From positions 70,160 through 134,159 of the forward strand of contig JBAWWL010000008.1 in assembly GCA_037146775.1 (NCBI GenBank): DNA of 64,000 nt, written 5' to 3'. Each line of letters starts with the position of its first letter. The first letter of the stretch is position 1. This DNA comes from Candidatus Omnitrophota bacterium. GTDB lineage: Bacteria > Omnitrophota > Gorgyraeia > Duberdicusellales > 4484-171. The position numbers and the translations under genes were made by a program. Shown here one piece after another: positions 11,376-44,283 of this stretch. The notes under the pieces were generated by a model. The model was not told the origin of the DNA. It worked only from the letters and a program-made list of their open reading frames with translations, and searched no databases.

Positions 11376-12930
<1,555 letters not shown>

Positions 12931-12976
12931 GTTGTTAGAATCTACTAAGTTTCGTATGAGTCTATCCTGATTTTTA

Positions 12977-13050
12977 CGCGGGGTGGAGCAGACAGGTAGC
13001 TCGCAAGGCTCATAACCTTGAGGTCAGTGGTTCAAATCCACTCCCCGCAA
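12977..13050 (+). tRNA. tRNA-Met (CAU), initiator type (fMet)
   Basis: Cloverleaf CGCGGGG...CTCATAACC...GGTTCAAATCC...CCCCGCAA. The C1/A72 mismatch and 5'-terminal CGCGGGG are hallmarks of bacterial initiator tRNA. CCA is not encoded. Confidence 0.9.
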
Positions 13051-13205
13051 TGTCTTAAATAGAGGGCGTAGATTGAAGAAATTCAACCTACGCCTTTTCT
13101 GTTTATGGACATATAGTATCGTTGGAGGCTGTGTGATATGGTTTATGCTGAGGTTTAAATTGTAAATTTTAGCCTGTAGGATATAATAAAAAAAAGGAGT
13201 AATAA

Positions 13206-13235
13206 ATGAAACCTCAAACAAAGAAAATCATAGCG
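13206..13235 (+). repeat. 5' module copy 1 (ATGAAACCTCAAACAAAGAAAATCATAGCG), encodes 16-aa mini-ORF MKPQTKKIIADEWFGE
   Basis: 30-nt motif present 9x between 13.2 and 22.4 kb. Confidence 0.9.
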
Positions 13236-13262
13236 GATGAGTGGTTTGGTGAATAAGGAGGG

Positions 13263-13706
13263 GTGATGGAAAATATTACAGCACCAAAAGGTGTAATATT
13301 AATAGTAAAAACTTATACTGTGTTAATTGTCTTATTGTTTGGGATATCGCTGCTTTTATTATTTGCAAGCACACTTCCAGTTCCCGTATCAGAAAGTGAT
13401 AGCCTTGAAGCTGGTGTCCGGGTTTCAAAGATGCAATCGTTGTCTTTGCGAGCTTCCGGTATTATTCTATTTTTAGCTATTAATTTTATCCTGTTGCGAA
13501 AAGCACTGCGAAATTTAAAAAAGTTGGCACTATATTACAATTTGTTACTTTTCATAGCATGTAGTATTCCTTTATTATTATTCATTATTGATGTTAAAGA
13601 CGCCCAAGTTATTGGTATTAAGATATTTTTTATTTTAATAATTCTATTATTTCTGTGCAGTAATTTGTATCTTTTCCGTTCCAAGGTTAAAAAGTGTTTT
13701 ATATAG
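13263..13706 (+). CDS. hypothetical polytopic membrane protein
   Basis: 147 aa, 4 predicted TM helices; RBS GGAGGGG upstream; lies between the two tRNA-derived repeats. Confidence 0.5.
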   Translation: MMENITAPKGVILIVKTYTVLIVLLFGISLLLLFASTLPVPVSESDSLEAGVRVSKMQSLSLRASGIILFLAINFILLRKALRNLKKLALYYNLLLFIACSIPLLLFIIDVKDAQVIGIKIFFILIILLFLCSNLYLFRSKVKKCFI

Positions 13707-13743
13707 AAATATTGTAAGCCGATTCTACTATCCATTTTTTTTC

Positions 13744-13805
13744 ATCATCTGGGCGGTAAGGACGTTGAAGCAAAATGATTTAGGTAAAGATATTTAAAAG
13801 GAAGT
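13744..13805 (+). repeat. 3' module copy a (..CATCTGGGCGGTAAGGACGTTGAAGCAAAATGATTTAGGTAAAGATATTTAAAAGGAAG)
   Basis: ~60-nt motif present 7x. It reads as the C-terminal peptide IIWAVRTLKQ.DLGKDI* when in frame. Confidence 0.9.
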
Positions 13806-13949
13806 ATAGAAATGAGGACCGGGTCTACTATTATAAATTGAGCATTTCTATTTACATTACTACTTGAAGTAATACAATCATCTAAAGGAGGTAAAGGCTA
13901 CTGAGGACAGGGTACTAGTCAACAAAGCTCTTTATTAGTTTTTTATCGT

Positions 13950-14140
13950 CTCATAACCTTGAGGTCAGTGGTTCCCCGCCAGCGAAGCTGGCGAGGTCTC
14001 GCCCTCTGCCGAAGGCAGAGAGGCGGAAAATCCACTCCCCGCAATGTCTTAAATAGAGGGCGTAGATTGAAGAAATTCAATCTACGCCTTCTTTGTTTAT
14101 AGGCATGTAATGCTTTCGGAGGCTGTGGGGAGACTCGATA
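13950..14140 (+). repeat. direct repeat of the tRNA-fMet 3' half (anticodon loop onward) plus ~90 nt of its downstream flank, interrupted by a 57-nt insertion
   Basis: 13009-13140 and 13950-14140 share CTCATAACCTTGAGGTCAGTGGTT...TCCACTCCCCGCAATGTCTTAAATAGAGGGCGTAGATTGAAGAAATTCAA. The second copy has a two-hairpin insert CCCCGCCAGCGAAGCTGGCG...GCCGAAGGCAGAG at the T-loop position. Confidence 0.85.
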
Positions 14141-14334
14141 ATGTTTATCCTACCAACGAACCTATATTAATTTGGACCTTATCATGTGTTAGCAGCATTA
14201 CTTTCTGCTAGCATTGTAAGCGATTCCAGCAATTACCGTGCATAGCCTTGTCGGCTAATCTCTTAAAATGTTATACTTAAATACTAGAGCATCATAAAAA
14301 TAAGGAAATATCTGTAGATGATAGGAAGAAAGCT

Positions 14335-15162
14335 ATGAGATCGTTCAAATTCTTATTGTTTTATCTTGTTTTTAATCTGCTATTTGTAGGATTTAGATGT
14401 TTTGCTTCCGATAGCAAGGTGCTATCTACAAAAGTTGTCAGTAATAGAGCCCAGAAGCGTGAACAAGTAAAGGGGCAATTTATGGCCGAGCGTTCTATAG
14501 ATAGAAGGCAAGAACTAGATGCCCGCGCAAAATGGAACAACGCAATTATTCCTGCCGCTGGTACAACATACGAAGTTCGTGCTTTAGTAAAAGGGAAAGA
14601 CCGAGACCAAGTATTTGAACAGACAATTTCCTCGGGGCACACTTCTTTGCAACGCGCAGAAGAGAAACGTGCCGAAGCCCTTGATAGACCTTATTATAAA
14701 GGTTCTCATGTTGCAATTTTTATGGAAGTTAATAATGAATTAAAGCAAGTGCTATATTGGGACCCCGCCATTAAACCTTTATATAGAATTGGTAGTTATG
14801 ATACGCTCTATGAGGTGGCTGATTTGGCCGCACGCTTACGTTTGGATGATTATAAAATGATAGCAGCTAAAGGATGGGATAGAGATCCGAATGTAGCTGG
14901 AATGTTAGCGCCAGAACTAAAAATATACAGTGTTGATGGCGATGGCATGCCCATGAGTGAAGCTGATATCGCCTTCGAAGTATTTCTTAAAACAGAAGGT
15001 ATTCATAGGCCAAAAGCGTTAAATATTTTTCATTATACAAACCAAGAAGCAGAAGATTTTGTTTCAAGAGAACAAAAATTTCTTCCACAAGGACAGAGTT
15101 TACGTATTAGAGAATCAATCTTTTTTAACCCTCTCCCGGAAAATTTCAGTTATCCTGATTGA
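14335..15162 (+). CDS. hypothetical secreted protein
   Basis: 275 aa, N-terminal signal peptide, no recognisable motif. Confidence 0.5.
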   Translation: MRSFKFLLFYLVFNLLFVGFRCFASDSKVLSTKVVSNRAQKREQVKGQFMAERSIDRRQELDARAKWNNAIIPAAGTTYEVRALVKGKDRDQVFEQTISSGHTSLQRAEEKRAEALDRPYYKGSHVAIFMEVNNELKQVLYWDPAIKPLYRIGSYDTLYEVADLAARLRLDDYKMIAAKGWDRDPNVAGMLAPELKIYSVDGDGMPMSEADIAFEVFLKTEGIHRPKALNIFHYTNQEAEDFVSREQKFLPQGQSLRIRESIFFNPLPENFSYPD

Positions 15163-15325
15163 AAGTTATATCTTGTCATTATGAACACAATATGACATTT
15201 GAGTGGGAATTAGTAGTTAACCTGCCTTAGTTTTTATCCCACCAGCCAATCTACATTAGTTTTAACCCCTCGCTAAATCTGTTGTAGTCATAAATTACCG
15301 TGGTATATTGAAAACAAACAGTAAA

Positions 15326-15526
15326 ATGACAGCAGCAAATATAATAGGTGGGATTTTATTTAGCGGAATTGGCTTCGTTGCCTTGATGTATGGGAAAAAG
15401 CAAGTCAATACAAAGGCGATGATAATCGGCGTTCTACTTATGGCCTACCCTTATTTTGTGTCAAACACCATTGCGTTATATCTAATAGGCGTTGTTTTAA
15501 CAGTAGCCTTATTCATCCCCCGCTAA
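15326..15526 (+). CDS. small two-TM membrane protein
   Basis: ~66 aa, two hydrophobic helices. Confidence 0.35.
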   Translation: MTAANIIGGILFSGIGFVALMYGKKQVNTKAMIIGVLLMAYPYFVSNTIALYLIGVVLTVALFIPR

Positions 15527-15712
15527 ATACCTCGCTTTTTTAACCTTGACCAATATTTACTATAGCAGTATCATTTTAGCTACTTGACCACAAAGGGGTG
15601 GTTAATGCATGAGGATAAAATGATATCCAGAAAACACAATCGGGACATTTTTATAGGGTAAGGCAATCATCTATCAGAGGATTGCCTTTTTGGTTTAAGA
15701 AAGGAGATATAT

Positions 15713-16462
15713 ATGAAATGCAGCGTTCATCTTGAAAGAGAAGCTGTAGGAGCTTGCGTAGAATGTGGTCTTGCTTTTTGTGAGGAGTGCAAAGTTACTA
15801 TAAGTAATAAAAATTATTGCAAAAAATGTGTTGAAAGGGTAATCAAAAGAACCAAACTTTCTGAAAGAAATCCTGCCATTGCTGCTTTATTGAGTTTTAT
15901 TATCGCTGGTGCAGGACAAATATATAATGGACAGATAGGAAAAGGTATTTTAATATTTCTAACGGCTTGGCTAGTAATACCTTGGATTTATGGCATTTTC
16001 GATGCCTACAACACAGCCAAAAGAATAAATAATGGAGAAATAGTTACTGAGGAACCATCGGGTTGTTTGCTTGCGCTTTTGTTTGTTATAACGATTCCGG
16101 TGGTTGTTGCTATGATTGCTTTACTTGCTGCTATAGCTATCCCAAATTTCTTGAGAGCTAGATTGGCAGCTAACGAAGCCGGAGCAGAAGCAAAAGTAAT
16201 GACTATATCTACAGCACTTGAGAGCTATGCCTCTGTGCATGAAGGGAATTATCCTTCAGATGAAAAGGACCTTACAAATGCCCAGCCACCCTACTTAGGT
16301 GAATCTTGCAGTAATAAATCAATTAAAGGATATAATTATTCTTTAGAATTAAATTCTGATGGATATACAGTTACTGCAGAACCTTCCAGTTGCGGAACTA
16401 CAGGAAGTAGAATTTTTAAAGTAGAGACGGGTGGGATTAAACGTGAACAACAATGTAAATGA
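15713..16462 (+). CDS. zinc-ribbon / TM2-domain / type IV pilin-like helix fusion protein
   Basis: N-terminal CxxC...CxxC...CxxC ribbon. TM2-like segment (AGAGQIYNGQIGKGILIFLTAWLVIPWIYGIFDA). Then ALLAAIAIPNFLRARLAANEAGAEAK, which resembles the conserved pilin/pseudopilin N-terminal helix. Confidence 0.5.
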   Translation: MKCSVHLEREAVGACVECGLAFCEECKVTISNKNYCKKCVERVIKRTKLSERNPAIAALLSFIIAGAGQIYNGQIGKGILIFLTAWLVIPWIYGIFDAYNTAKRINNGEIVTEEPSGCLLALLFVITIPVVVAMIALLAAIAIPNFLRARLAANEAGAEAKVMTISTALESYASVHEGNYPSDEKDLTNAQPPYLGESCSNKSIKGYNYSLELNSDGYTVTAEPSSCGTTGSRIFKVETGGIKREQQCK

Positions 16463-16731
16463 ATAAAAAACAATTAATAGTTACTTTATTAACACTATTT
16501 TTTGTTTTACCTGTATTCGCCGCCAATATACCTCAAGAGTTACAATTGCTTGGTTTTACTCAAGACAAGTTAGTTGATTACAGACGTGCTAAAGATAATA
16601 TTGAATATTTTACTTTCTCCGATTGGACTACGGAGAGGAAGGGAGATACAATTACCTTCATAGTCGAGAGAGGTCAGATAACAGGAAAGTTTAAAGATGA
16701 GAATAGAAAGGTTTTAGATAAGGATATTTAA
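16459..16731 (+). CDS. small secreted protein (paralog of 22090..22383)
   Basis: 90 aa, signal peptide; the mature part is ~90% identical to the 22090 ORF (IPQELQLLGFTQ.KLVDYRRAK.NIEYFTF.DWTTERKGDTITFIVERGQITGKFKD). Confidence 0.6.
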   Translation: MNKKQLIVTLLTLFFVLPVFAANIPQELQLLGFTQDKLVDYRRAKDNIEYFTFSDWTTERKGDTITFIVERGQITGKFKDENRKVLDKDI

Positions 16732-17305: not shown

Positions 17306-17349
17306 CAAAATTCTTTAGAACAAAAGAACAGTTTAAATAAGGAGACTTA

Positions 17350-17583
17350 ATGAAACCTCAAACAAGGAAAATCATAGCGAGAGAAGTAAGGATTCTGTTG
17401 CTTTGTTATGTCTTAGGTCTTATAGCTGGTTATCTCGTGACGTGCAATAAGAATGCCCCTTGGTACTCTTCCTTTGTGGGAGCGTTCAGTGTTTGTATAA
17501 TTTATTACATCGCTATTTTAATTGTGCGTTTGTTATTCAAATGTATCATCTGGGCGGTAAGGACGTTGAAACAAAGGATTTAG
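17350..17583 (+). CDS. small membrane protein, intact member of the module-bounded family (MKPQTKKIIAR...IIWAVRTLKQRI)
   Basis: 77 aa, 2 TM. N-terminus is the 5' module and C-terminus is the 3' module, in one frame. Confidence 0.6.
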   Translation: MKPQTRKIIAREVRILLLCYVLGLIAGYLVTCNKNAPWYSSFVGAFSVCIIYYIAILIVRLLFKCIIWAVRTLKQRI

Positions 17584-17609
17584 GTAAAGATATTTAAAGA
17601 GGCGATATG
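17545..17609 (+). repeat. 3' module copy b
   Basis: CATCTGGGCGGTAAGGACGTTGAAACAAAGGATTTAGGTAAAGATATTTAAAGAGGCGATATG. It supplies the RBS and start context of the 17607 ORF. Confidence 0.9.
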
Positions 17610-17948
17610 AATGAGGTCGTTACAAAGAAGAAAAGACCAAACATGGTTTCGATGTTCGTTCTCTGTTATGGTTTATTGGGTGGCTATTATCTTTTTGAAC
17701 GTTTTTTGGGTTCAAGCGGAGTAAGAATGATAAAGCCATACGATGTAGCAGAAGTTAGTATTGTCTTAATTTTTGGTTTATTATTTTTTCTTTCTTCGAT
17801 TCTACTGTTTAGAATGAAGTACTCTGGATTTTGGGTTGTTATTATACCGCTATTTTTATTTGCTTACGGTTTACCCCCATTATCTTTATTGCTATTATTA
17901 CATATTGTTTATTTTAATCTACCCAAAGTAAAAGAACAGTTTAAATGA
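17607..17948 (+). CDS. small membrane protein (C-terminal LPKVKEQFK)
   Basis: 113 aa, 3 TM. Shares its C-terminal motif with the 17989 ORF. Confidence 0.5.
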   Translation: MNEVVTKKKRPNMVSMFVLCYGLLGGYYLFERFLGSSGVRMIKPYDVAEVSIVLIFGLLFFLSSILLFRMKYSGFWVVIIPLFLFAYGLPPLSLLLLLHIVYFNLPKVKEQFK

Positions 17949-17974
17949 AACTTCAAACAAAGAAAATCATAGCG
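17945..17974 (+). repeat. 5' module copy 3 (mini-ORF MKLQTKKIIARRRE)
   Basis: Its ATG overlaps the TGA of the upstream gene (TAAATGA); the internal AGGAGGG serves as RBS for the 17989 ORF. Confidence 0.9.
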
Positions 17975-17988
17975 AGAAGGAGGGAATA

Positions 17989-18417
17989 ATGGAGAAGAAA
18001 AGGTCGGTTGGGGTTACGATACTCTCACTGATTTATATCGTTATAGGCTTAGGCATATTAACAACTACCATAACCGAACCCAGAAATACAGAACCAAGCA
18101 TTTTCTATTCGCATTGGGGGAGGGAAATTTTTGAGCCAATGACACCCTTAGAGCATTTGCGTTTCCAGGCAATTTTAGCGTTTTGCTTATCCACACCTTT
18201 TCTTATTAGTGGATTTGGTACTTTGAAATTGAAAAAATGGGGAAGGATACTTATTGTAATACTAAATATGTTTTTTGTATTTTTATTACCCCCAACAATT
18301 ATAACAGTAGTTATCTATAAGCATCACGATTTTTTATTTCTCCTTATTATGGAAATTTTTGCACTCATTTTTTCGGTTTATCTCGCCCGTCCCAAAGTAA
18401 AAGAGCAGTTTAAGTAA
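17989..18417 (+). CDS. small membrane protein (C-terminal RPKVKEQFK)
   Basis: 142 aa, 4 TM. Confidence 0.5.
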   Translation: MEKKRSVGVTILSLIYIVIGLGILTTTITEPRNTEPSIFYSHWGREIFEPMTPLEHLRFQAILAFCLSTPFLISGFGTLKLKKWGRILIVILNMFFVFLLPPTIITVVIYKHHDFLFLLIMEIFALIFSVYLARPKVKEQFK

Positions 18418-18424
18418 TCCGCTT

Positions 18425-18490
18425 TATCCTCTGGGCGGTAAGGACGTTGAAGCAAAAGGATTTAAGGAAAGATATTTAAGGAGATATATG
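18425..18490 (+). repeat. 3' module copy c
   Basis: CCTCTGGGCGGTAAGGACGTTGAAGCAAAAGGATTTAAGGAAAGATATTTAAGGAGATATATG; ends in the ATG of the 18488 ORF. Confidence 0.9.
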
Positions 18491-18760
18491 AATAAACAAA
18501 AGACGAAATTTTTCTGGATAGTTATGGTGTTGGTTCTTGTCGGCATTGCTGTATTATTTTTGTTAATTTATGCTCAATGCTATGTACTTAAGCCTCAACA
18601 CGGAATGGGTCGGATGAGTCCAGGTAAAGATGCAGCATATTACGATTCAGATAAGAAAAAATGGGTAAGCGAGGCGGAATGGCTTAGGAAGTACACAGAA
18701 TTGCCAATAGGTTATCTTTCGAAAGAGGAGTGGGATAAGAAAAAACGGAATAATCAATGA
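18488..18760 (+). CDS. small single-TM protein
   Basis: 90 aa, N-terminal TM, charged C-terminal domain. Confidence 0.45.
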   Translation: MNKQKTKFFWIVMVLVLVGIAVLFLLIYAQCYVLKPQHGMGRMSPGKDAAYYDSDKKKWVSEAEWLRKYTELPIGYLSKEEWDKKKRNNQ

Positions 18761-19374
18761 AACCTCGAACAAAGAAAATCATAGCGATAGCAATAATAGG
18801 AATTATCATTTTTGGGGTTATATTTTTTGGAGGACATTTATTTAAGGGGAATGTATCTGGCAATGCAAGAATAAATAGGTCTTTCAAAGATTTAACTCTT
18901 GGAATGAGCCTCGAAGAATTTAAGTCAAAATTAATATATGAAGAAGGAAGCATGACAAAAGGTACATCATACAGAAGCTATGCGATATATAATACTTTTT
19001 ATAACTCTTTGTATCATTACTCCGGTCAAGGCAAACGAATGAAGGAAATTAAAAATGTTTATAGCGTCTGGTGTTATTTCCTTGAAAACAAACTATTTAA
19101 GATCCACATAAGTTACCTTAATAGCTATCATCCGACTTGGGATAATGTTATCCATAACGCAAAAGGAAAGTATGGTGAGGGTATAATAGAAGCAGGAAAT
19201 GTTATTCGTTGGGATGATGGAAAAACTACTCTAACGATAGCCAAATTATACGGGGAGCAAGGCTTAAATATAAGTGATAGTTATAGTGGAGACCATTACA
19301 CAGTAACTTATAAAGATAACGAGCTGAGCTCATTAATTGACAAGAAAGAAAAGAAGGAAACCCCTGAAATCTAA
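18757..19374 (+). CDS. hypothetical N-terminally anchored protein (N-terminus derived from the 5' module)
   Basis: 205 aa; starts MKPRTKKIIAIAIIGIIIF, which is 5' module copy 4. Confidence 0.5.
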   Translation: MKPRTKKIIAIAIIGIIIFGVIFFGGHLFKGNVSGNARINRSFKDLTLGMSLEEFKSKLIYEEGSMTKGTSYRSYAIYNTFYNSLYHYSGQGKRMKEIKNVYSVWCYFLENKLFKIHISYLNSYHPTWDNVIHNAKGKYGEGIIEAGNVIRWDDGKTTLTIAKLYGEQGLNISDSYSGDHYTVTYKDNELSSLIDKKEKKETPEI

Positions 19375-19394
19375 ACGAGTAAAGGTAGAGAAAG

Positions 19395-19673
19395 ATGTTT
19401 AAAAGGGAATATATGAAACTAAAGAAAATCATAGCGAGAGAAGGGTTGGCATTGTTGGTGGCGATTTTTATTGCTTGGCATATGGCACAAACTAACGGTC
19501 TGAAAAGTTTTATGATGGATATTAGAATTGTAACCCCACGCCCAAATCAAGCAGATGCTGTTTTGCAAGAAGCAACTACAGCTGGTTTTTGGTTTATTTT
19601 GATTGTGGGTTATGGCGTTGTCCGCTTCATCCCCCTAAAGGGACGGCGTTGGACGCCAGCATCTGGGCGGTAA
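19395..19673 (+). CDS. small membrane protein, module family member with frame-shifted 3' end (possible pseudogene)
   Basis: Contains the 5' module deletion variant (MKLKKIIAREG). The 3' module follows out of frame (ends PASGR* instead of IWAVRTLKQ). Confidence 0.35.
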   Translation: MFKREYMKLKKIIAREGLALLVAIFIAWHMAQTNGLKSFMMDIRIVTPRPNQADAVLQEATTAGFWFILIVGYGVVRFIPLKGRRWTPASGR

Positions 19674-19724
19674 GGACGTTAAAGCAGAAGGATCCAAGGA
19701 AAGATATTTAAAGGAGGCGATATG
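19659..19724 (+). repeat. 3' module copy d
   Basis: CATCTGGGCGGTAAGGACGTTAAAGCAGAAGGATCCAAGGAAAGATATTTAAAGGAGGCGATATG; feeds the 19722 ORF. Confidence 0.9.
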
Positions 19725-20039
19725 AAACTATCCAGTAAAGTAATCTGGTTTATTTTTGGTGTAATACTTTATCCGCTTTGTTTTATGCTTATTTTTATAC
19801 TTACGATTCCCCTTTCAGCTCTACCAAAAAATAATGCGGTGCAAATTTTTTCTATATCGGTAATATTTTTAATACCTATTTTTATTATCGTACTGACTTG
19901 GAAACGTAATATTAGTTTTGCTGTAGGATTAATTTTATCCTTTTGCTTAGTTTTCATTTCGTTGAATAGAAGTTACAGAAGGGTGGTGAAGAATGAGAAA
20001 GCAAAAGTACTAGAAAATTCATTACCCGCCCCAAAGTAA
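19722..20039 (+). CDS. small membrane protein
   Basis: 105 aa, 3 TM. The 3' end runs into the PKVKEQFK-type motif out of frame. Confidence 0.45.
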   Translation: MKLSSKVIWFIFGVILYPLCFMLIFILTIPLSALPKNNAVQIFSISVIFLIPIFIIVLTWKRNISFAVGLILSFCLVFISLNRSYRRVVKNEKAKVLENSLPAPK

Positions 20040-20052
20040 AGGAGCAGTTTAA

Positions 20053-20082
20053 ATGAAACTTCAAACAAAGAAAATCATAGCG
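20053..20082 (+). repeat. 5' module copy 6 (mini-ORF MKLQTKKIIARGDENVFI)
   Basis: Preceded by GGAGCAGTTTAA; overlaps the start of the 20090 ORF. Confidence 0.9.
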
Positions 20083-20089
20083 AGAGGGG

Positions 20090-20488
20090 ATGAGAATGTA
20101 TTTATTTAAAAGGATAATGTGGTTTCTCGGAGGGATTATTACGGGGTTCATATCATCTTTTTATATTCTTGTACCTATATTTTGTTCACTCCAAATACCC
20201 GTCTATTTACAATGTAGTATTATCATTATCATTGTGACAATTGTGCTTTTGCTATTTTCTAAGAAAAATAGAATATTCTTTTATAGTTTCCTTATTTCAT
20301 TTATTATTGGGACGATTCCATGTATTGTGTTTTATTATGTGTTTGGAGGTGGCAGTTTTCCTAACCCCGATGGCGGTTCTGGCAGGATGAGTCGGGAAGA
20401 ACAGTTAGAATTAGAAAGAAATCAACAAGAATACAAACCAGACCCAAGCAGAATTAAAATAATACAACTGAAATCAAAAAATGATTAA
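20090..20488 (+). CDS. small membrane protein
   Basis: 132 aa, 3-4 TM, Gly-rich C-terminal tail. Confidence 0.45.
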   Translation: MRMYLFKRIMWFLGGIITGFISSFYILVPIFCSLQIPVYLQCSIIIIIVTIVLLLFSKKNRIFFYSFLISFIIGTIPCIVFYYVFGGGSFPNPDGGSGRMSREEQLELERNQQEYKPDPSRIKIIQLKSKND

Positions 20489-20519
20489 GGAAATGGTAAT
20501 GTTTTTTTTCTTTAATGGT

Positions 20520-20549
20520 ATGAAATCCCAAACAAAGAAAATCATAGCG
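20520..20549 (+). repeat. 5' module copy 7 (mini-ORF MKSQTKKIIAREAKLAYIGKKEETYELVFPSA)
   Basis: The leader ORF overlaps the RBS and start of the DUF805 gene. Confidence 0.85.
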
Positions 20550-20592
20550 AGAGAGGCAAAGCTAGCATATATCGGAAAAAAGGAGGAGACCT

Positions 20593-20937
20593 ATGAATTG
20601 GTATTTCCAAGTGCTTAAGAAGTACGCAGTATTTAGCGGTCGTGCTAGACGGAAAGAGTACTGGATGTTCTTAATTTTTAACTTGAGTGTCTGCTTTGTA
20701 TTAGGTTTCATAGAAGGGTTTTCCGGTATTACGCCAAAGGGAAACCACAGTGTTTTGGGCAGGATTTATGTATTGGCTGTCTTGATTCCGATCATTGCCG
20801 TTGCTATCCGCAGAATGCACGACACTGACCATCGCGGATGGTGGATACTCGTTCCGATTGTCAGCTGGGTTTTCCTCTGTTTAGATAGTACCCCCGGAAA
20901 CAATAGATTCGGACCTAACCCCAAGGCTATCTCTTAA
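20593..20937 (+). CDS. DUF805-family inner membrane protein
   Basis: MNWYFQVLKKYAVFSGRARRKEYW motif and 3 TM typical of DUF805 (YhaH-like). Confidence 0.65.
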   Translation: MNWYFQVLKKYAVFSGRARRKEYWMFLIFNLSVCFVLGFIEGFSGITPKGNHSVLGRIYVLAVLIPIIAVAIRRMHDTDHRGWWILVPIVSWVFLCLDSTPGNNRFGPNPKAIS

Positions 20938-20945
20938 CTTGTTTT

Positions 20946-21012
20946 CATCATTTGGGCGGTAAGGACGATAAGATAAAAGGATTTAGGTAAAGATATTTAG
21001 GGGGGATATACG
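20946..21012 (+). repeat. 3' module copy e, followed by a degenerate 5' module
   Basis: CATCATTTGGGCGGTAAGGACGATAAGATAAAAGGATTTAGGTAAAGATATTTAGGGGGGATATACGAAACCTCCAATACAG. Confidence 0.85.
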
Positions 21013-21073
21013 AAACCTCCAATACAGATTCCGTATATTAATTGTTAGATTTAATAAATAAGATAAAAAAATA

Positions 21074-21436
21074 ATGGCGAAATGTTTTAACTGTGGCAAA
21101 GAAATTGGTTTATCTTGGATTTGGAAAAAGCGGATGGTCCACGCGCCTCTTACTCTCCGACGATATACTCATAAGATAGTAGGCTTACCATTTTTTTATT
21201 GCCCCGATTGCGGAACAGAAATTCAACCTTCCGCAATCACAATGTGTGTTTATAGCGTTATAGTAATGGGTGGAACGTTGGGAACCTCGTGGCTGATTGT
21301 TCTGTTTGGCGATAAAAAACAGGTTAACATTATTAGCATAACAGTGATTTTTATATTTTTTGCTGTACTTGGTAACTTATGGTGGAAATTTTTCGGCAAA
21401 TTAAAAGAACCATATCAATTTCCTTGGGAAAAGTAG
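21074..21436 (+). CDS. zinc-ribbon membrane protein
   Basis: CFNCGKEI...YCPDCGTEI ribbon then 2 TM. Confidence 0.5.
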   Translation: MAKCFNCGKEIGLSWIWKKRMVHAPLTLRRYTHKIVGLPFFYCPDCGTEIQPSAITMCVYSVIVMGGTLGTSWLIVLFGDKKQVNIISITVIFIFFAVLGNLWWKFFGKLKEPYQFPWEK

Positions 21437-21494
21437 TAATTAAATAAAAATCTAACAAGGCAATCCAGCGGACTAAAATAAGGGAGCAGTTTAA

Positions 21495-21524
21495 ATGAAA
21501 CTTCAAACAAAGAAAATCATAGCG
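21495..21524 (+). repeat. 5' module copy 8 (mini-ORF MKLQTKKIIARRRG)
   Basis: Preceded by GGGAGCAGTTTAA; AGGAGGGG RBS for the 21536 ORF. Confidence 0.9.
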
Positions 21525-21535
21525 AGAAGGAGGGG

Positions 21536-21805
21536 ATGATGGAGAAGAAATGCTCGGTTGGGATAAGAATATTTAGCATAATAGGATTACTTTATGTGTC
21601 CTTTTTTCATTTAATACCTTTATTTTACTATGCTCGGATGAATAATTTTATTCATTTAATTTTCTTAGCTTTCTCCATAATTCTAATAATTAGCTTAATA
21701 TTTATGTTAAAAATGAAAAACTGGGCAAGAATAGTATTTGTTTCCCTTATGATTATCCAATGTTTATCTGTGTTTCCAACTATAATCGAGGATTTTAGAA
21801 AATAA
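21536..21805 (+). CDS. small membrane protein
   Basis: 89 aa, 3 TM; its 3' end is tagged by the GGGGTCAGACC... repeat. Confidence 0.45.
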   Translation: MMEKKCSVGIRIFSIIGLLYVSFFHLIPLFYYARMNNFIHLIFLAFSIILIISLIFMLKMKNWARIVFVSLMIIQCLSVFPTIIEDFRK

Positions 21806-21811
21806 GATAGA

Positions 21812-21836
21812 GGGGTCAGACCTTCAGATGTCAGAT
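21812..21836 (+). repeat. GGGGTCAGACCTTCAGATGTCAGAT repeat copy 1
   Basis: Identical 25-26-mer at 21812, 23456 and 26039, each at a gene 3' end. Confidence 0.9.
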
Positions 21837-22089
21837 AGATCGCAAAAATGAATTATTTATCAACCAAAGCCCACCTCCGGGGTGGGATTTGGTTGAGGTT
21901 TATAGATTAAACAAAATTAAAAATTATCCATGCCCGACGATCCACTTGATGAATTTCTAGGATATGATTTTGCAGTGGGCGCGGATAACATAAAATGTTC
22001 CCATTGTGGTTACAACATATCGCGTAGCTTATTCTTCGAAGACGATGACGAAGAAATCAAATGTCCTAAGTGCGGCGGAAAAATAGAAA

Positions 22090-22383
22090 ATGATGGATAA
22101 AAGACACGTAATATCTTTTTTGCTGGTATTAATTTATTTTGTTTCCCTGTCTTATAGTAAAGAGCTGCCAAAAAAGAATATTCCCCAAGAGCTGCAATTG
22201 CTCGGTTTTACTCAAGAAAAGTTGGTTGATTACAGACGTGCTAAAGGAAATATCGAATACTTCACTTTCTTTGATTGGACTACAGAGAGGAAGGGAGATA
22301 CCATTACTTTCATAGTCGAGAGAGGTCAGATAACAGGAAAGTTTAAGGATAAAGATAGGAAAGATTCAGGTAGGGATATTTAA
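22090..22383 (+). CDS. small secreted protein (paralog of 16459..16731)
   Basis: 97 aa. Different signal peptide from its paralog but a near-identical mature region. Confidence 0.6.
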   Translation: MMDKRHVISFLLVLIYFVSLSYSKELPKKNIPQELQLLGFTQEKLVDYRRAKGNIEYFTFFDWTTERKGDTITFIVERGQITGKFKDKDRKDSGRDI

Positions 22384-22394
22384 AAGGAGGATAT

Positions 22395-22625
22395 ATGAAA
22401 CTCGAAACAAAGAAAATCATAGCAAGCGAATGGTTGATTTTGTTATGTTTAATAATTACTTTTTATTCATCTTTGGCATTGTACAGGGAAATAACCTTAC
22501 GGTATGACCAAATTTTAACTCCTATTTATTTCTGGAGGCATTTTGGTTTAATGTACACAGCTTATTTTATCATTCGCTTTACAATCTGGGCGGTGAGGAC
22601 GCTAAGGCAGAAGGATGTAAAATGA
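22395..22625 (+). CDS. small membrane protein, second intact member of the module-bounded family (MKLETKKIIA...FTIWAVRTLRQKDVK)
   Basis: 76 aa. 5' module copy 9 forms the N-terminus and 3' module copy f the C-terminus. Confidence 0.6.
   Translation: MKLETKKIIASEWLILLCLIITFYSSLALYREITLRYDQILTPIYFWRHFGLMYTAYFIIRFTIWAVRTLRQKDVK
22583..22624 (+). repeat. 3' module copy f (coding, in frame)
   Basis: CAATCTGGGCGGTGAGGACGCTAAGGCAGAAGGATG. Confidence 0.85.
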
Positions 22626-22918
22626 GATTGGGCAATAAAATTGGATTGTTGATTATAATTATAATTCCAGTATGGATATTTATAAGAGCCCAGTTAATTT
22701 ATACAGAAGGTCCAAAAATAGTTAAGAGGATAGAAGAATATAAGGTTAGATATAAAACATACCCAGAAACATTAGGGCAGATGAATATAAGGAGTATACT
22801 TTCTCCGATATATATGTATTCTAAAAACGATGACAAATTTAGCTTAATGTATTCTATATTTATATTTTCAAGATGGTATTATGATTCCAATGATAAAAAA
22901 TGGAAGACCATGGATTAA
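22622..22918 (+). CDS. small N-terminally anchored protein
   Basis: 98 aa, one TM. Confidence 0.4.
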   Translation: MRLGNKIGLLIIIIIPVWIFIRAQLIYTEGPKIVKRIEEYKVRYKTYPETLGQMNIRSILSPIYMYSKNDDKFSLMYSIFIFSRWYYDSNDKKWKTMD

Positions 22919-23432: not shown

Positions 23433-23455
23433 ATAAGTCATATAGTGGGGTCAGA

Positions 23456-23480
23456 CCTTCAGATGTCAGATGAATAAAAA
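23456..23480 (+). repeat. GGGGTCAGACCTTCAGATGTCAGAT repeat copy 2
   Basis: Exact copy. Confidence 0.9.
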
Positions 23481-23625
23481 AATACATGATCCCAGCCTAC
23501 GAAGATACTGCGAAATTCTTTTCGATCATTTCACGATGTTTAGCGGGGTTAATGCCAGTGAGACTGTCTTTTTTTTAGACAAAGCGAAAAACATATAGTC
23601 AGATTACCATTAAGGAGGCAAAAGA

Positions 23626-24445: not shown

Positions 24446-26065
24446 ATGGTTAGAAAAGAACATAAAATCTTATTATTGTCTTTATTTTTTACTACAGGCA
24501 TTTTGTTATATTCCTTCGGTGTCCAGATAGGGAATCTTTGCGGCAATGGTGTCTGTCAGGTAGGTGAGAATTCCGGAAATTGTCAGGCAGATTGCAGGCC
24601 CAGAAAAATAACACAGGATCCTTTCGGCATTTTTGTGCCTTATCTTACAAAAAACTCGATAAGTATGATCAACGAACTTGCTGTTGACGCAAGAACCATC
24701 GTTATGTGGGATTGGATTACACCGAGGAAAATTACGGCTTTTGATGATTTTATTTCTCAAGTTAAAACGAATGTGGTGCTTACCTTAGGTGGGGCTAAGA
24801 AATTTTCTTCCGGCGGGGGTTTTCCGCTTCCGCGAGGAAAAGATCTCGAAGAATGGAAAACGATGGTTGCAAGATTAGTCGAAAGATACGATGGGGATAA
24901 CGATTGGGGATGTGCTTTAAATCAGCCGGACTGCTATAATCCCGGAGACGGACTTTACCCAAATAATGATTTTCAAGAAGCAATCAAGAAAAGGCCAATT
25001 AAATATTGGCAGATAGAAAATGAATGGCTTTGGGAGATCAAAGATCCCGACAACCCGCAACGTCGGGCTTCCAATGAGAGCATGTTGGACTATTTTCTAC
25101 AAATCAGAAAAGTTATCAAGGATAGAGACTCCCGGGCTAAGATAGTTTTGGGTGCTTCTACTACTTCCCATTTTTCCGCAGGTGCGGATGGCTATAGTCC
25201 CGACAATTGCATTGAGTGGGGGGATTTAGATTGTAAATATGAAAAACTTTCTTTGGATGCGCTGCGGCCAAAAGCACGCTTGAAATTAAAGGAGATGCGG
25301 GAAAGGGATATTTTCTTTATGAAAAAAGCTGCGCCGTATTATGATGTTTTTGATTTCCATATCTATGGAAATAATCTTTTGGATATTGCTTATGTGGTTG
25401 GCTGGTTTAACAAAATAATGCATGAAAATAATATTGCAGGTAAGGCAATCTGGAGTACAGAAATAGCTAAGCCATATTTTTTCTTTCCTTTAATGGGCCT
25501 GCCTAGACCGGATTGTGCCACGGATGACAAATTATTTTATCCCAACGGGCCGCGGCCGATTAAAACAGCATATGATAGTAGTATACATTCGAGTTACCTG
25601 GTTAAGCTTTTTGTCATTGGGATAGACAGCGGTGTAGAGAAAATGTTTTATGCCGGCTTGCACCCGATTTTTAACCTCAATGATAATTTTTGTAAACTAT
25701 CCCTCACTAATGAAAGAGATGAGAAAAAACCGGCATATTACACTTATAAATTAATGCGGGAAAAGCTAGCTGGATGCACAGACGTAGAAAAATTAGCCGA
25801 CCATACCTATAAGTTTTCTTTTGGGAATAAGAAACCAGTCTTTGTTGTATGGGGCGACTCCGGAAATAAAACTATCGACTTATCGCGTTATATTGGCGCA
25901 AAAAAAATAAAAGTTACACGTATTATTACCGAGAACGGTAAGACTGACCAAGATGCGTTGGTAGAGACTTTACCTGTGAGCCAGATAGAAATTTCGGTGA
26001 CGCCTGTTTTTATCGAAGAGGCAGATAAGGAAAATGACGGGGTCAGACCTTCAGATGTCAGATAA
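24446..26065 (+). CDS. secreted glycoside-hydrolase-like (TIM-barrel) protein
   Basis: 539 aa, signal anchor, Cys-rich linker. WQIENEW resembles the GH5/GH39-type catalytic NE(P/W) strand. C-terminus VRPSDVR is encoded by GTCAGA repeat copy 3. Confidence 0.4.
   Translation: MVRKEHKILLLSLFFTTGILLYSFGVQIGNLCGNGVCQVGENSGNCQADCRPRKITQDPFGIFVPYLTKNSISMINELAVDARTIVMWDWITPRKITAFDDFISQVKTNVVLTLGGAKKFSSGGGFPLPRGKDLEEWKTMVARLVERYDGDNDWGCALNQPDCYNPGDGLYPNNDFQEAIKKRPIKYWQIENEWLWEIKDPDNPQRRASNESMLDYFLQIRKVIKDRDSRAKIVLGASTTSHFSAGADGYSPDNCIEWGDLDCKYEKLSLDALRPKARLKLKEMRERDIFFMKKAAPYYDVFDFHIYGNNLLDIAYVVGWFNKIMHENNIAGKAIWSTEIAKPYFFFPLMGLPRPDCATDDKLFYPNGPRPIKTAYDSSIHSSYLVKLFVIGIDSGVEKMFYAGLHPIFNLNDNFCKLSLTNERDEKKPAYYTYKLMREKLAGCTDVEKLADHTYKFSFGNKKPVFVVWGDSGNKTIDLSRYIGAKKIKVTRIITENGKTDQDALVETLPVSQIEISVTPVFIEEADKENDGVRPSDVR
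26039..26063 (+). repeat. GGGGTCAGACCTTCAGATGTCAGAT repeat copy 3
   Basis: Exact copy, forming the last codons of the 24446 ORF. Confidence 0.9.
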
Positions 26066-26303
26066 ATAGGAAAAAGTGTTTTATATTCAAGATCCGGTTA
26101 GACGAAATTGACAATTTTTTCAAGGAGTTAATGATCCAATCATTTTTTGCGAACAGCACATATAAATCCATTTCCCGAAATTAGATAATTCCGATAACCC
26201 TACGATTTTGCGAGTCGTAGGGTTCTCTCTTTTTATGGGGATTTGTACCAATCCATGCATTTTTGGTATATAATAGAAAGATAAAAGACATTCAAGCAAA
26301 AAC

Positions 26304-41309: not shown

Positions 41310-42305
41310 TTAAAACTTCAACGTCTCAACCGCTTTCTTTAAATGCTCCGGACTTAGGTGAGCGTATATCTGCGTAGTAGCAAAGTCAGCATGGCCCAAT
41401 ATTTTACCTACTGTATATAAATCCACCCCACTCATGACTAACCATGAGGCGCAGGAATGACGAAGTACATGGAAGAGCCTGCCTTTACCCAAGTTTATCT
41501 TCGCGGCCACCAATAAAGTCTTAAATGCCCTCTTGGGCTCGTCTGTGTATTTTTTACCGTTATAAACGAACACAAACGGCGTAGAATGGGGTATCTTGTG
41601 TAGGGTAGAGGAAACCATCGGATGTATGGGAATTGTGCGAAAAATACGGCTTTTTGCCTTACTACCACGTATTGTAATAGTATTGTTCGATAAATCTATG
41701 TCTTTCCATTCAAGATTAAGGATTTCACCTATTCTCATGCCGGTATAGAGTGCAGTTATGATTATAGGATATAAATGCGATTCTTTGGAAACTTCAAGCA
41801 GCTTGGATATTTCGTCTTTGGATAAATAGCGCGGAGGTTCTTTCGGTACTTTGAGTTTTTTAATCTGGTCTATCGGATTATCAAAGATGTAGTTATTTCG
41901 TTTAGCGTAATTTAAGAAAGTGCGGATATTGCCGATATAGTTATTTATGCTTTTAGGTTTTAGTTTTTTCAGCGATTGAAGATATAGTTGTATCGTATGT
42001 GGCTTAACATCCCTTAACGTGTTTGCTCCGCTAAACTTAATAAATTTCTCTAACTGTGGTATATCTGTCTTGAGTGATTTTTCTGCTTTCTTGAGTTTCG
42101 AGTATTCCTTATATTCTTCAACAATTTCTGAAAGTTTTTTGCTTGTAGGTAATTTGGCGCGGCCTTCCTCAAGCTCTATTTCTTTTTGCCGTTTTAGATG
42201 AAGCGCTAGCCTGCGGTCCTTTACCTTGAGGGAATACTGGATCCTTTTTCCGTTAAGATAGAACGAAAGCCAGTAGGTGTTGTTTCTTAGGAAGATTGAG
42301 GCCAT
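41310..42305 (-). CDS. tyrosine-type site-specific integrase (phage integrase family)
   Basis: C-terminal R...HVLRHS...TTQIYAHL catalytic motif set. Confidence 0.9.
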   Translation of the reverse strand: MASIFLRNNTYWLSFYLNGKRIQYSLKVKDRRLALHLKRQKEIELEEGRAKLPTSKKLSEIVEEYKEYSKLKKAEKSLKTDIPQLEKFIKFSGANTLRDVKPHTIQLYLQSLKKLKPKSINNYIGNIRTFLNYAKRNNYIFDNPIDQIKKLKVPKEPPRYLSKDEISKLLEVSKESHLYPIIITALYTGMRIGEILNLEWKDIDLSNNTITIRGSKAKSRIFRTIPIHPMVSSTLHKIPHSTPFVFVYNGKKYTDEPKRAFKTLLVAAKINLGKGRLFHVLRHSCASWLVMSGVDLYTVGKILGHADFATTQIYAHLSPEHLKKAVETLKF

Positions 42306-42306
42306 C

Positions 42307-42669
42307 TTAAGGCACTATGCCATATTTCATTGGTTTGTCGGAATTGATAGATGAATATTCTTCAACAATCCCATCTTTAGAAAACATTATGACCAGCATT
42401 TGATTTTTCATTTCCATTTCGCTGTGGATAATATTGACTACCGGTATAAAGTTCCAGGCGGTATTTCTTACCTTACTGGCAAAGTAAGAATAAACTAATC
42501 TTCCGTCTTTATCGAAGTAGGTTGTGTCGGGTTGGCCGAAAACCTTTACCACTTCTTCTTTGGTAGTTTTGCCTTTTTGAAGCTTATCAACATTAGTTTG
42601 TTTAATTTCTGTTCCAACAGTGGCGCAGCCGGAGAAAAGAACCAAGATACAAAATATAATTATTCTCAT
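42307..42669 (-). CDS. BamE/SmpA-OmlA-like lipoprotein
   Basis: Lipobox LFSGC; LQKGKTTKEEVVKVFGQPD motif. Confidence 0.55.
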   Translation of the reverse strand: MRIIIFCILVLFSGCATVGTEIKQTNVDKLQKGKTTKEEVVKVFGQPDTTYFDKDGRLVYSYFASKVRNTAWNFIPVVNIIHSEMEMKNQMLVIMFSKDGIVEEYSSINSDKPMKYGIVP

Positions 42670-42678
42670 AGTCTAATT

Positions 42679-43317
42679 TTAATTGAAACTTTTCAAAGCC
42701 TTTATAACCTTGCCAATAATTTCTATGGTAGTATTTTTTGGATCAATTACTATCGGTGCATAATCGTGATTACACGGCTCTAAAATAATTTTTTCGCTTT
42801 TCCCGTCTTCTGTTTTTGTTCTATAAAATTTTTTCATTGTGCATTCATCTCCTATCCGCGCCACAATAATATCGCCATTATTTATATGATTATTAGGCGA
42901 AACGATGACGAGGTCACCGTTAAAAATACCAGCTTCTTTCAAGCAGTCACCCTTTACGCGCAAGGCAAAGCAGTCTTTGTTTTTTACAAAATCATAATTT
43001 AAAATAATGGTATCAAGAATATCTTCGAATGCAAAATTAAATCTATCTGCCGGGCATTCACCGCGAACAGGTATTTCTACTGTTTTTGATATTGTAGTTT
43101 CTTTAACTGGTAACGCACCATAAAGTTCGGCCTCTGATATATTTAAAGTTTTGCAAAGTTTTTTCCTAGTTTCGGGATTAGGCTCATTAATGCCCTGTTC
43201 GATTGCTCGGATAGTAGCCAATTTTACCTTAGACTTTTCAGAAAGTTCTTCTTGAGTTAGTCCGGCCTGATCGCGATAAAATTTTAATTTTATAGTCATG
43301 GTAGATAGTATTATCAT
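42679..43317 (-). CDS. CI/LexA-like phage repressor (XRE HTH + S24 peptidase)
   Basis: N-terminal HTH (LTQEELSEKSKVKLATIRAIEQG); C-terminal S24 domain (FALRVKGDCL...). Confidence 0.85.
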   Translation of the reverse strand: MIILSTMTIKLKFYRDQAGLTQEELSEKSKVKLATIRAIEQGINEPNPETRKKLCKTLNISEAELYGALPVKETTISKTVEIPVRGECPADRFNFAFEDILDTIILNYDFVKNKDCFALRVKGDCLKEAGIFNGDLVIVSPNNHINNGDIIVARIGDECTMKKFYRTKTEDGKSEKIILEPCNHDYAPIVIDPKNTTIEIIGKVIKALKSFN

Positions 43318-43475
43318 AACAGCTTTTAAGATATTTACTTGTAAAAATTATAATATTTATATTTTTTTAGTCAATCAAAAACACTCAAAAGCTATTGATT
43401 TTAAAGGGTTTCTAACATAAAATATAATACTTGCAACGATTTAGTTGTATTTTTTACTTGACAGGTAATATAAAA

Positions 43476-43505
43476 AATGGTATAAATCAACTGAATCTCC
43501 AAATT
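43476..43505 (+). promoter_or_regulatory. sigma70-like promoter for the Cro-like gene in the divergent repressor/cro intergenic region
   Basis: TTGACA - 17 nt - (TG)GTATAAAT; perfect palindrome TAATAT-AAAAAA-ATATTA lies ~20 nt downstream as a candidate operator. Confidence 0.5.
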
Positions 43506-43558
43506 CTATTTTTTTTGTCCTGTTACTAATATAAAAAATATTACTTGAGAGGAAAAAG

Positions 43559-43819
43559 ATGAGAGGAAAAATAAGACTAAGAAAGACAGTCGTTGAAACT
43601 TGGGTAAAGGGTGCAGGCCCTGATATGAATATAACCAGGTTAGCTGAGGAAGAGGGTATAGATCCTGGTAATTTTTCACGAATGATGAGTGGTGACCTCG
43701 AGCCGTCAAAGCCGGTGATGAAAAAATTATTGATGCGCACCGGTTATAGTTTTGATGCATTGTTTGAATTTGATAGAAATGCCACATCAGATGAAAACGA
43801 TAAAACAAATGATAATTAG
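43559..43819 (+). CDS. Cro/HTH-type regulator
   Basis: 86 aa; divergent from the repressor; HTH-like ITRLAEEEGIDPGNFSRMMSG. Confidence 0.5.
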   Translation: MRGKIRLRKTVVETWVKGAGPDMNITRLAEEEGIDPGNFSRMMSGDLEPSKPVMKKLLMRTGYSFDALFEFDRNATSDENDKTNDN

Positions 43820-44281: not shown

Positions 44282-44283
44282 CC

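Follow-up and report, generated by a model that had tools for sequence, protein, structure and literature searches.

Why should the 3' half of an initiator tRNA gene occur twice within little more than a kilobase, and why should the second copy carry two hairpins within its T-loop? The question is raised by a 64,000-nucleotide stretch of DNA from a Candidatus Omnitrophota bacterium (hereafter the window; contig JBAWWL010000008.1, positions 70,160 to 134,159), in which an intact tRNA-fMet gene is followed by a small cassette with one cargo open reading frame (ORF) and then by a displaced copy of the tRNA 3' half with its trailer and terminator. The first-pass annotation of this DNA compared the layout with the attL and attR ends of an integrated element, and a regenerated gene followed by a displaced 3' fragment in direct orientation is indeed what we observe. 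Our interpretation, to which we give a probability of about 0.45 and which rests on comparison of sequences, is that the segment is a recombinase-less integrated cassette belonging to a family of mini-elements that mimic tRNA 3' ends and have the double hairpin as their hallmark. The double-hairpin module marks displaced tRNA ends in many Omnitrophota genomes, and the family is apparently undescribed.

The window contains only one tRNA gene, on which ARAGORN and Rfam agree: an initiator tRNA-Met(CAT) at 12977–13050 (+ strand; Rfam tRNA, 61.1 bits), without an intron and without an encoded CCA. It starts with CGCGGGG and ends with CCCCGCAA, so that direct reading gives the C1×A72 mismatch of bacterial initiator tRNAs. 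A promoter-like site, recognized by consensus match only, lies 5' of the gene at 12914–12941 (+; TTGACA-16-TAGAAT with a TG extension, 11 of 12 consensus positions). The left edge of the repeat is the first base of the anticodon loop (13009 and 13950), and each copy can be divided at the TTC of the T-loop. The first part, from the anticodon loop to TTC, is identical at 25 of 25 positions between 13009–13033 and 13950–13974 (both +). The second part comprises, in copy 1 (13034–13149, +), the AAAT of the T-loop, the 3' strands of the T-stem and acceptor stem, the trailer and the terminator; in copy 2 (14028–14151, +) it comprises the remaining tRNA 3' end, the trailer, the terminator and a region with a vestigial ribosome-binding site (RBS) and ATG. 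Here 13034–13133 and 14028–14127 are 88% identical, with the initial 53 nt exact (13034–13086 and 14028–14080), and homology extends across an 8-nt indel to about 13149/14151, the trailer and terminator sharing about 100 nt. Terminator-like hairpins are predicted in both copies, at 13061–13100 and 14055–14092 (both +). The two copies align locally with scores of 131–264, against a window background of 17.5 ± 12 (maximum 41). Identities and scores alike confirm the repeat, in both coordinates and sequence, as it was first described. A possible third copy at the end of the island, 26164–26179, was rejected, having 3 mismatches in 16 positions and a local score of 21, which is within the background.

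The proximal copy (13009–13149) completes the working gene and provides it with a trailer and terminator; the distal copy (13950–14151) is a displaced, non-functional 3' half, behind which lie the trailer and terminator native to the lineage. The latter lacks the 5' half, and hence is no gene: positions 1–31 are missing, ARAGORN calls nothing and there is no GCGGGG partner upstream, which argues against an intron-containing or split tRNA. The native trailer and terminator follow the pattern TGTYTTAAAT.GA.GGCGTAGATTGAAGAAATTCA..CTACGCC, which is also found 3' of tRNA-fMet or of its displaced end in the related loci L087 and L111/L112 (L-numbers label the comparison loci or contigs; L111 and L112 are one relative, seen in two samples). 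In their first 62 nt, the trailers of these relatives are 88.5% and 91.2% identical to copy 2, and 82.0% and 87.5% identical to copy 1; in a long trailer alignment to L111 the values are 83% for copy 2 and 75% for copy 1. Copy 2 is therefore nearer to the trailers of relatives, as expected if it is the older copy and in place, with copy 1 having come with the inserted DNA.

The T-loop of copy 2 contains a 53-nt module at 13975–14027 (+; folding z = −5.3), consisting of two hairpins, hp1 at 13975–13996 and hp2 at 14000–14025. The module was initially taken as a 57-nt insertion that replaces the T-loop; it is in fact 53 nt long and splits the loop, separating GGTTC from AAATCC (TTC^AAAT, where the caret marks the module). 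Two looped stems had also been proposed, and folding returns two hairpins, although the loops are GAA triloops closed by C–G pairs rather than GNRA tetraloops. The T-stem around the module can still close, which would give a three-way junction (fold of 13950–14100, z = −8.3). The window has a single copy of the module.

This arrangement is not peculiar to one assembler. The window corresponds to a 114-kb contig of an NCBI metagenome-assembled genome (MAG), GCA_964613555.1, and is identical to it over the 21 kb compared. Contigs from Logan, a separate assembly of the same sample (SRR12676968), match exactly over 13057–14018 and 14051–16686, with breaks only at the 53-nt exact repeat, and one of them (L084) joins the cargo to the hairpin-bearing copy, so that this junction is independently supported. 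The path through the 53-nt repeat comes from the MAG assembly alone.

The suggestion to look for further copies of the insert, as of a mini-element, was well aimed, for the insert is one of a repeated family. It is a single-copy sequence in the window, and its relatives lie in other Omnitrophota genomes. We built a covariance model, R1, from five tRNA-linked units of other genomes, with the window excluded. R1 matches the window at 13967–14044 with 32.4 bits (E = 2e-5), and the plain T-arm at 13026–13050 scores 23.1 bits. In L027, L045, L090 and L105, tRNA-fMet is followed by one to three extra units, each running from a T-stem 5' strand and TTC through two hairpins to A(A)AAT, a T-stem 3' strand and CCCCGCAA(CCA). 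By R1, tRNA-Thr(CGT) of L027 is likewise followed by two units and tRNA-Arg(ACG) of L107 by one. The acceptor strand of a unit is always that of the resident tRNA, be it fMet, Thr or Arg, and the T-loop position TTC^A(A)AAT is identical in every tRNA-linked copy, so that the insert is no random hit. The window and nine other units have the module there, and it occupies this position in at least six other genomes. Free-standing intergenic copies are present in L014, L036 and L105, and R1 detects a minimal copy in L047. Some relatives have 2–5 module copies per 12–21-kb locus; 33 loci from outside Omnitrophota gave no R1 match. In the common plan, a resident tRNA is followed by a spacer of 12 nt to 1.9 kb, which may contain a gene; a T-arm mimic holding the module comes next, and then the repeated tRNA 3' end.

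All 14 modules fold as two adjacent hairpins. Conserved stems, (T/C)CC(C)GC(C) paired with (G)GCGGG(A), occur twice per module, nearly identical and in direct orientation, and the loops and stem tips vary. The first hairpin, hp1, is 87% paired, three of its pairs have changed on both sides, and none of 500 shuffles reached the observed value. Module variants resemble one another more closely inside one genome or clade than from clade to clade, even when they are linked to different tRNAs, which argues for movement rather than old vertical inheritance. The L111 unit has a hybrid T-stem: its 5' strand, GCAGG, is that of the tRNA-Arg unit of L107, and its 3' strand, CCATG, is the resident one, as a crossover adjoining the hairpins would produce. 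A block of GCAGG, TTC and hairpins is present both at tRNA-fMet in L111 and at tRNA-Arg in L107. Among the free-standing modules, flanking direct repeats are clear only in L014 (16 nt, p about 0.01) and weak elsewhere.

No Rfam 15 family other than tRNA in the window and Intron_gpI in relatives was found at gathering threshold. Permissive hits of the unit to the bZIP/Hac1 intron (E = 2.2) and to SSRC10 (E = 0.04) fall far under the gathering scores, and we regard them as noise. Literature searches on Omnitrophota initiator tRNA and on T-loop miniature elements gave no result, and no description of such a module was met in the papers that could be searched. The window insert, searched as an exact or a structured pattern, has no match in IMG/VR or in JGI metagenome contigs, and IMG/VR scans for module variants returned chance matches only, with no viral or plasmid attP. 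A looser pattern met 13 loci in metagenome contigs, among which L105 is the one clear family member. Four near-identical contigs, L094, L099, L101 and L106, carry a GC-rich, unit-like sequence, GTTCCCCTGTG...CACAGGGAAAATCCATGCCCCCGCAA, with no tRNA seen nearby, which is perhaps distantly related or else matches by chance; the remaining loci proved to be type I-E-like CRISPR repeats or coincidences in coding sequence.

A second type of module was observed 5' of repeated tRNA-fMet 3' ends, at the same place as the double hairpin, in L013 (7195–7275), L087 (12385–12460), L090 (12395–12590) and L113 (11775–11850). Here one or two TTC-looped hairpins are enclosed by a closing stem of 12 bp, TTTGGATGxxxx/xxxxCATACAAA, in which compensating changes are seen.

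We then compared the tRNA-fMet site between genomes. The nearest genomes are all Candidatus Omnitrophota, and their enolases are at most 84% identical to that of the window, so that no genome of the same species is in the comparison; the GTDB species representatives (enolase at most 75%) are too distant for synteny past the tRNA. The genes upstream are core genes (lgt, nadE, eno and an ftsB-like gene), and the order eno-ftsB-tRNA-fMet, within panC...lgt-nadE-eno-ftsB-tRNA-fMet, is conserved in about 50 Omnitrophota loci, with downstream DNA that differs in every lineage. Five genus-level relatives (L087, L107, L111, L113 and L147) keep synteny for 10 kb upstream, and in them orthologues of window 34.4–37.5 kb follow after just 0.7–4.3 kb of variable DNA. 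In the window, synteny with relatives ends at 13.05 kb and returns only at about 34.4 kb, leaving about 21 kb of lineage-specific DNA, and G+C is low across 13–23 kb. The earlier proposal that the repeat opens an accessory island agrees with the loss of synteny at 13.05 kb.

One relative, L111/L112, has an enolase 82% identical to that of the window. Here tRNA-fMet and its trailer are followed by the tail of a resolvase pseudogene, a 398-aa gene of the HEPN family, a hairpin-bearing tRNA end and the same trailer, with 1.9 kb between the copies. The displaced end reads gagaatt, then, from the repeat boundary, CTCATAACCTTGAGATCGCAGGTTC, hp1, hp2 and AAAATCCATGCCCCGCAA. As in the window, the left boundary falls on the first base of the anticodon loop and the hairpins sit at TTC^AAAT; the cargo differs. 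L107, L144 and L145 have a plain tRNA-fMet. The first-pass annotation had reasoned that relatives sharing the same arrangement without variation would point to an old, inert duplication. The architecture is shared with one relative, but the different cargo of L111/L112 and the plain sites of L107, L144 and L145 argue against such a duplication and for a reused insertion site. An island in L025 is bounded by the same anticodon-loop repeat, likewise without an integrase. Most tRNA-fMet loci lack a hairpin unit, and its copy number and position differ between close relatives. Judged from the loci compared, the arrangement is not shared by all, nor is it an accident of one lineage: a single site has been used repeatedly, and what it holds can be exchanged.

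The tRNA-fMet gene of near and distant Omnitrophota relatives can also hold a group I intron in its anticodon loop; the window gene is intron-free. The intron-bearing loci are L087 (11620–12283), L090 (11609–12283), L105 (4247–3986, minus strand) and L147 (1706–1989). The L105 intron scores 78.6 bits with Rfam Intron_gpI, and ARAGORN misses the tRNA when the intron is present. L087 and L088 have an ORF of the PDDEXK_5 family (I-Ssp6803I-like) annotated within the intron, a region to which the intron of L090 aligns.

What, then, lies between the two copies? The segment measures 941 or 994 bp, according to where the crossover is placed. A promoter-like site for the cargo (13160–13187, +; TTGTAA-16-TATAAT, 10 of 12 consensus positions) precedes a 5' module with a 16-codon leader ORF, MKPQTKKIIADEWFGE and a stop codon, at 13206–13256 (+), related copies of which occur 8–9 times at 17.3–22.4 kb. 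The cargo ORF follows at 13266–13706 (+). It encodes 146 aa (147 aa from a GTG at 13263) with four hydrophobic segments, matches no Pfam family and has no tblastn match in any relative compared. A 3' module at 13744–13797 (+), ATCATCTGGGCGGTAAGGACG...GATATTTAA, is common to six cassettes of a downstream array. A further promoter-like site at 13851–13878 and the terminator at 14055–14092 together enclose the hairpin-bearing unit. No recombinase domain was detected in 13051–13949, or among the scanned ORFs up to 34 kb (the small ORFs at 17–23 kb were outside the scan). The bracketed DNA had been described as one cassette with a 147-aa membrane ORF and no integrase, and this description holds.

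The modules on either side of the cargo have relatives further along the window. The 5' modules (MKPQTKKIIARE...; 13195–13255 and 17339–22444) and the 3' modules (ending IWAVRTLKQK and a stop codon; 13736–13796 and 17537–22633) look like the two ends of a single small membrane-protein gene of about 76 aa. Apparently whole copies of this gene are present at 17350–17583 and 22395–22625. Other copies, that with the cargo at 13266–13706 included, have unrelated ORFs between both ends, as if this were a repeated docking place.

Traces of a recombinase were found at the equivalent site in relatives. Directly after the tRNA-fMet trailer lie remnants of a Resolvase domain, the small serine recombinase type, in L090 (12863–13077; a pseudogene, Pfam E = 2e-5), L111 (11825–11881) and L112 (9509–9565), the last two keeping only its tail. 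A query with the remnant recovered one 60-aa fragment only, and there was no intact gene in any compared locus; nor does a serine recombinase adjoin attL in the window. A vestigial RBS and ATG close each of the two window trailers, where the remnants of relatives sit, a correspondence that we infer. The only integrase in the window is of the tyrosine type and lies 27 kb off, at 41310–42305 (minus strand). Together with an S24-type repressor with a helix–turn–helix (HTH) domain (42679–43317, minus strand), an HTH_36 gene (45127–46125) and ParB (46651–47937), it suggests a separate integrated element at 41310–47937. No Y1/HUH transposase was seen among about 50 window ORFs scanned.

How might such an arrangement arise? 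We envisage that a small circular DNA would enter carrying a mimic of a tRNA 3' half, in which the loop of the T-arm holds the double hairpin. Recombination with the chromosomal tRNA gene would take place within the shared segment 3' of the hairpins, regenerating an intact tRNA and leaving the hairpin-bearing mimic at the far, attR-like junction. By analogy with the P arm of attP, or with attC, the double hairpin would most likely be the element-side recombination site or boundary. The enzyme would act in trans; a small serine recombinase is the best candidate, because its vestiges directly follow the tRNA trailer in two relatives (L090 and L111/L112). This one mechanism could cover the foreign, self-pairing T-stems of some units, the resident T-stems of others, the hybrid of L111 and the block shared by L111 and L107. 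Since the distal trailer also has a vestigial RBS and ATG, an earlier element of this type probably occupies the DNA between 14.1 kb and about 34 kb, and the cassette would have accreted to it in tandem.

Several observations count against such an integration. There is no recombinase in or beside the window element, whose sole integrase is the distant tyrosine enzyme, and the proposed link to a serine recombinase consists of two pseudogene remnants in relatives. The IMG/VR scans yielded the module neither as a free circle nor in a virus. Some copies are intergenic, without any tRNA part (L014, L036 and L105). The left edge of the repeat, in the anticodon loop, is far upstream of the hairpins, and a single crossover explains both boundaries only if the element already carried the tRNA-half mimic. 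Among the genomes compared, all of other species, integration was never seen as presence or absence within one species. Finally, in the window, in unit U2 of L105 and in unit u2 of L027, the T-stem strands flanking the module are both of the resident type, which a simple insertion into a local tRNA copy fits equally well.

That last observation leads to the alternative that survives best, although we consider it rather unlikely: two unrelated events, in which a dead tRNA 3' half was left behind by ordinary island integration or by local duplication, and a mini-element later inserted into its T-loop. The mini-element would be non-autonomous, with two hairpins in direct orientation (resembling a palindrome element derived from IS200/IS605, or the repetitive extragenic palindromic sequences, REP), and would target TTC^AAAT, only dead copies being tolerant. 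The near-identical, directly oriented stems would suit such an element, as would the TTC and AA(A/G)T-like bases that flank the free-standing copies in L014, L036 and L105; resident-type T-stems flank not only the three modules just named but also that of the second tRNA-Thr unit of L027 (Thr-U2), and the module variants are genome-specific across tRNAs. Nevertheless, among type-B units the module occupies one exact position in every displaced end, which would need a very hot target, and the displaced ends lie 10–40 nt from tRNA-Thr, tRNA-Arg or tRNA-fMet with nothing between, unlike ordinary islands. The hybrid T-stem of L111 and the shared GCAGG-TTC-hairpin block indicate that a T-stem strand travels with the module. 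The lack of a Y1/HUH transposase among the scanned window ORFs, and the single copy of the module in 64 kb, also speak against a transposing element of this kind.

Unlikely, too, in our estimation, is a hitherto undescribed capture system for gene cassettes in Omnitrophota, in which the T-arms of tRNA-fMet, -Thr and -Arg would be docking sites, the cassettes circular and the double hairpin attC-like, with a small serine recombinase supplied in trans. Cassettes with or without an ORF would be inserted successively 3' of the tRNA, which would remain undamaged. By analogy, such a system would parallel the integron in function while being assembled from unrelated parts.

The hairpin-bearing units might instead be genes or parts of transcripts, forming a structured RNA with a three-way junction and CCCCGCAA(CCA) as its free tail, either transcribed together with the tRNA or placed at the 3' end of the cargo mRNA, and acting in processing, in stability or as a decoy. 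Units do lie between the tRNA and its terminator in L105, L027 and L045, and the window unit is enclosed by the promoter-like site at 13851–13878 and the terminator at 14055–14092. Pairing is conserved while loops vary, and self-complementary T-stems unlike that of the resident tRNA are kept (GCATG/CATGC, GGCAG/CTGCC and GCAGG/CCTGC). We nevertheless hold this to be improbable: the unit matches no Rfam family, its acceptor strand has no partner, the T-stem of the L111 unit does not pair, and wobble pairs compared with mismatches show no strand bias. Moreover, the unit is missing at most tRNA-fMet loci and varies in number and position among close relatives, and the same module occurs after three tRNAs and also alone.

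A very improbable account is that a homing endonuclease cut an intron-less allele in the anticodon loop and that misrepair of the double-strand break, by copying from foreign DNA and then end joining, duplicated the 3' half from the cut onwards. In this very gene, relatives have a group I intron that encodes a PD-(D/E)XK homing endonuclease (the PDDEXK_5 ORF of L087 and L088); the intron site of L087, L090 and L105 lies 2 nt 3' of the point where the repeat begins in the window, L111 and L025; and none of the segments bracketed in the window, L111 and L025 encodes an integrase. Break repair leaves unexplained, however, both the hairpin module and the units that begin at the T-loop; the window has no endonuclease gene; and the anticodon-loop boundary is a classic crossover place of tyrosine integrases. 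An assembly artefact, which would have used the 53-nt exact repeat to join two strain variants, or an empty site to a separate circle, is the least probable explanation: the source is a MAG, every short-k contig breaks at the repeat and a graph with this repeat permits a direct path from the tRNA to the second trailer, leaving a 994-bp circle, but the same path was obtained in two assemblies (the 114-kb NCBI contig and the longer source of the window), contig L084 links cargo and hairpins, and L111 and L112, from other samples and assemblers, share the architecture.

Two further features of the window were recorded. A 50-nt repeat at 21798–21847, 23433–23482 and 26025–26074 gives three otherwise unrelated ORFs a common end, GVRPSDVR and a stop codon; the shared C-terminus may be a sorting or processing signal. 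A 365-aa ORF at 54737–55834 (+) has a reverse transcriptase domain (Pfam RVT_1, E = 3e-22).

The repeated tRNA half is in itself a textbook signature of an island, and such repeats are a standard means of mapping islands; here it comes with a structured module, no integrase and zero to one cargo gene. What appears to be new is the conserved double hairpin at a fixed T-loop position in the displaced ends of three tRNAs, together with what seem to be minimal, recombinase-less elements spread over an uncultured phylum. If the module is a recombination site, then these elements would constitute a new family of minimal mobile cassettes, served by a recombinase that recognizes T-loops, and would account for the hypervariable region beside tRNA-fMet in these genomes. 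Island finders based on integrases would miss such insertions, and tRNA finders would miss or miscall the hairpin-bearing fragments; a covariance model of the module provides a searchable marker for them in metagenomes.

Comparison with known systems places the window element near several of them. It resembles the islands in tRNA or transfer-messenger RNA genes detected by Islander, those of tyrosine integrases with a crossover in the anticodon loop or the T-loop, in that a regenerated tRNA gene and a directly oriented displaced 3' fragment enclose foreign DNA, with a boundary at the anticodon loop and a hot spot that differs between relatives. By the Islander criteria, the tRNA gene and its displaced fragment are present and the bracketed DNA is absent from the site in relatives, but an internal integrase is lacking; the element is also smaller than 1 kb, its repeat spans about 100 nt of trailer and terminator, and a structured module occupies the displaced T-loop. 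With the palindromes of IS200/IS605 elements, REP and bacterial interspersed mosaic elements (BIME) it shares small hairpins that are rich in G+C and conserved in their stems, within a genome rich in A+T, dispersed lineage-specific copies, and two hairpins in the same orientation. It differs from these in that no TnpA or RAYT was seen in the scanned ORFs, the hairpins directly abut the flanks, the copy number is low and the tie to repeated tRNA 3' ends is tight. The distal repeats of Escherichia coli tyrT are 178-bp tandem units 3' of a tRNA gene, each ending in the tRNA-Tyr 3' end; unlike the window element, they have no T-loop hairpin module and no cargo, and they originated by local duplication.

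As with cis-mobilizable elements (CIMEs) and accreted integrative elements, the window element has att-like sites flanking cargo that lacks recombination or transfer genes, and a tandem arrangement with an older element is likely; CIMEs are mobilized by a related element; for the window element any such helper would be hypothetical. Integron cassettes with attC sites, and clusters of attC sites lacking integron integrases (CALINs), offer another parallel, namely a short cassette, promoter-less or with a small ORF, that ends in a structured imperfect palindrome with conserved ends and a variable centre, in arrays without an adjacent integrase. In contrast to integrons, the window element has no IntI, attI or Pc, and reading 13950–14045 gives no R''/L''-L'/R' boxes or GTTRRRY core; there are two tandem hairpins rather than one, docking is at a tRNA T-arm, and the tyrosine recombinase of the window (41310–42305) is not adjacent to the element.

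The ssrA-specific islands of Dehalococcoides, a documented precedent, use the CcrB-like DsiB and small DsiA serine recombinases and insert midway along the T-loop; the RNA gene's 3' end serves as the direct repeat, with a conserved non-target motif directly 5' of each repeat, and the islands are tandem, many lacking integration genes, with a recombinase gene beside attL (PMC3146451). The Omnitrophota elements differ in their targets (tRNA-fMet, -Thr and -Arg rather than transfer-messenger RNA), in having a double hairpin of 40–75 nt where the motif there is 15 nt, and in that no intact recombinase was found and many units have no cargo. They are alike in the mid-T-loop point of insertion, here TTC^AAAT in the window and nine units, and the position of the recombinase by attL in Dehalococcoides matches that of the vestiges in L090 and L111 (PMC3146451).

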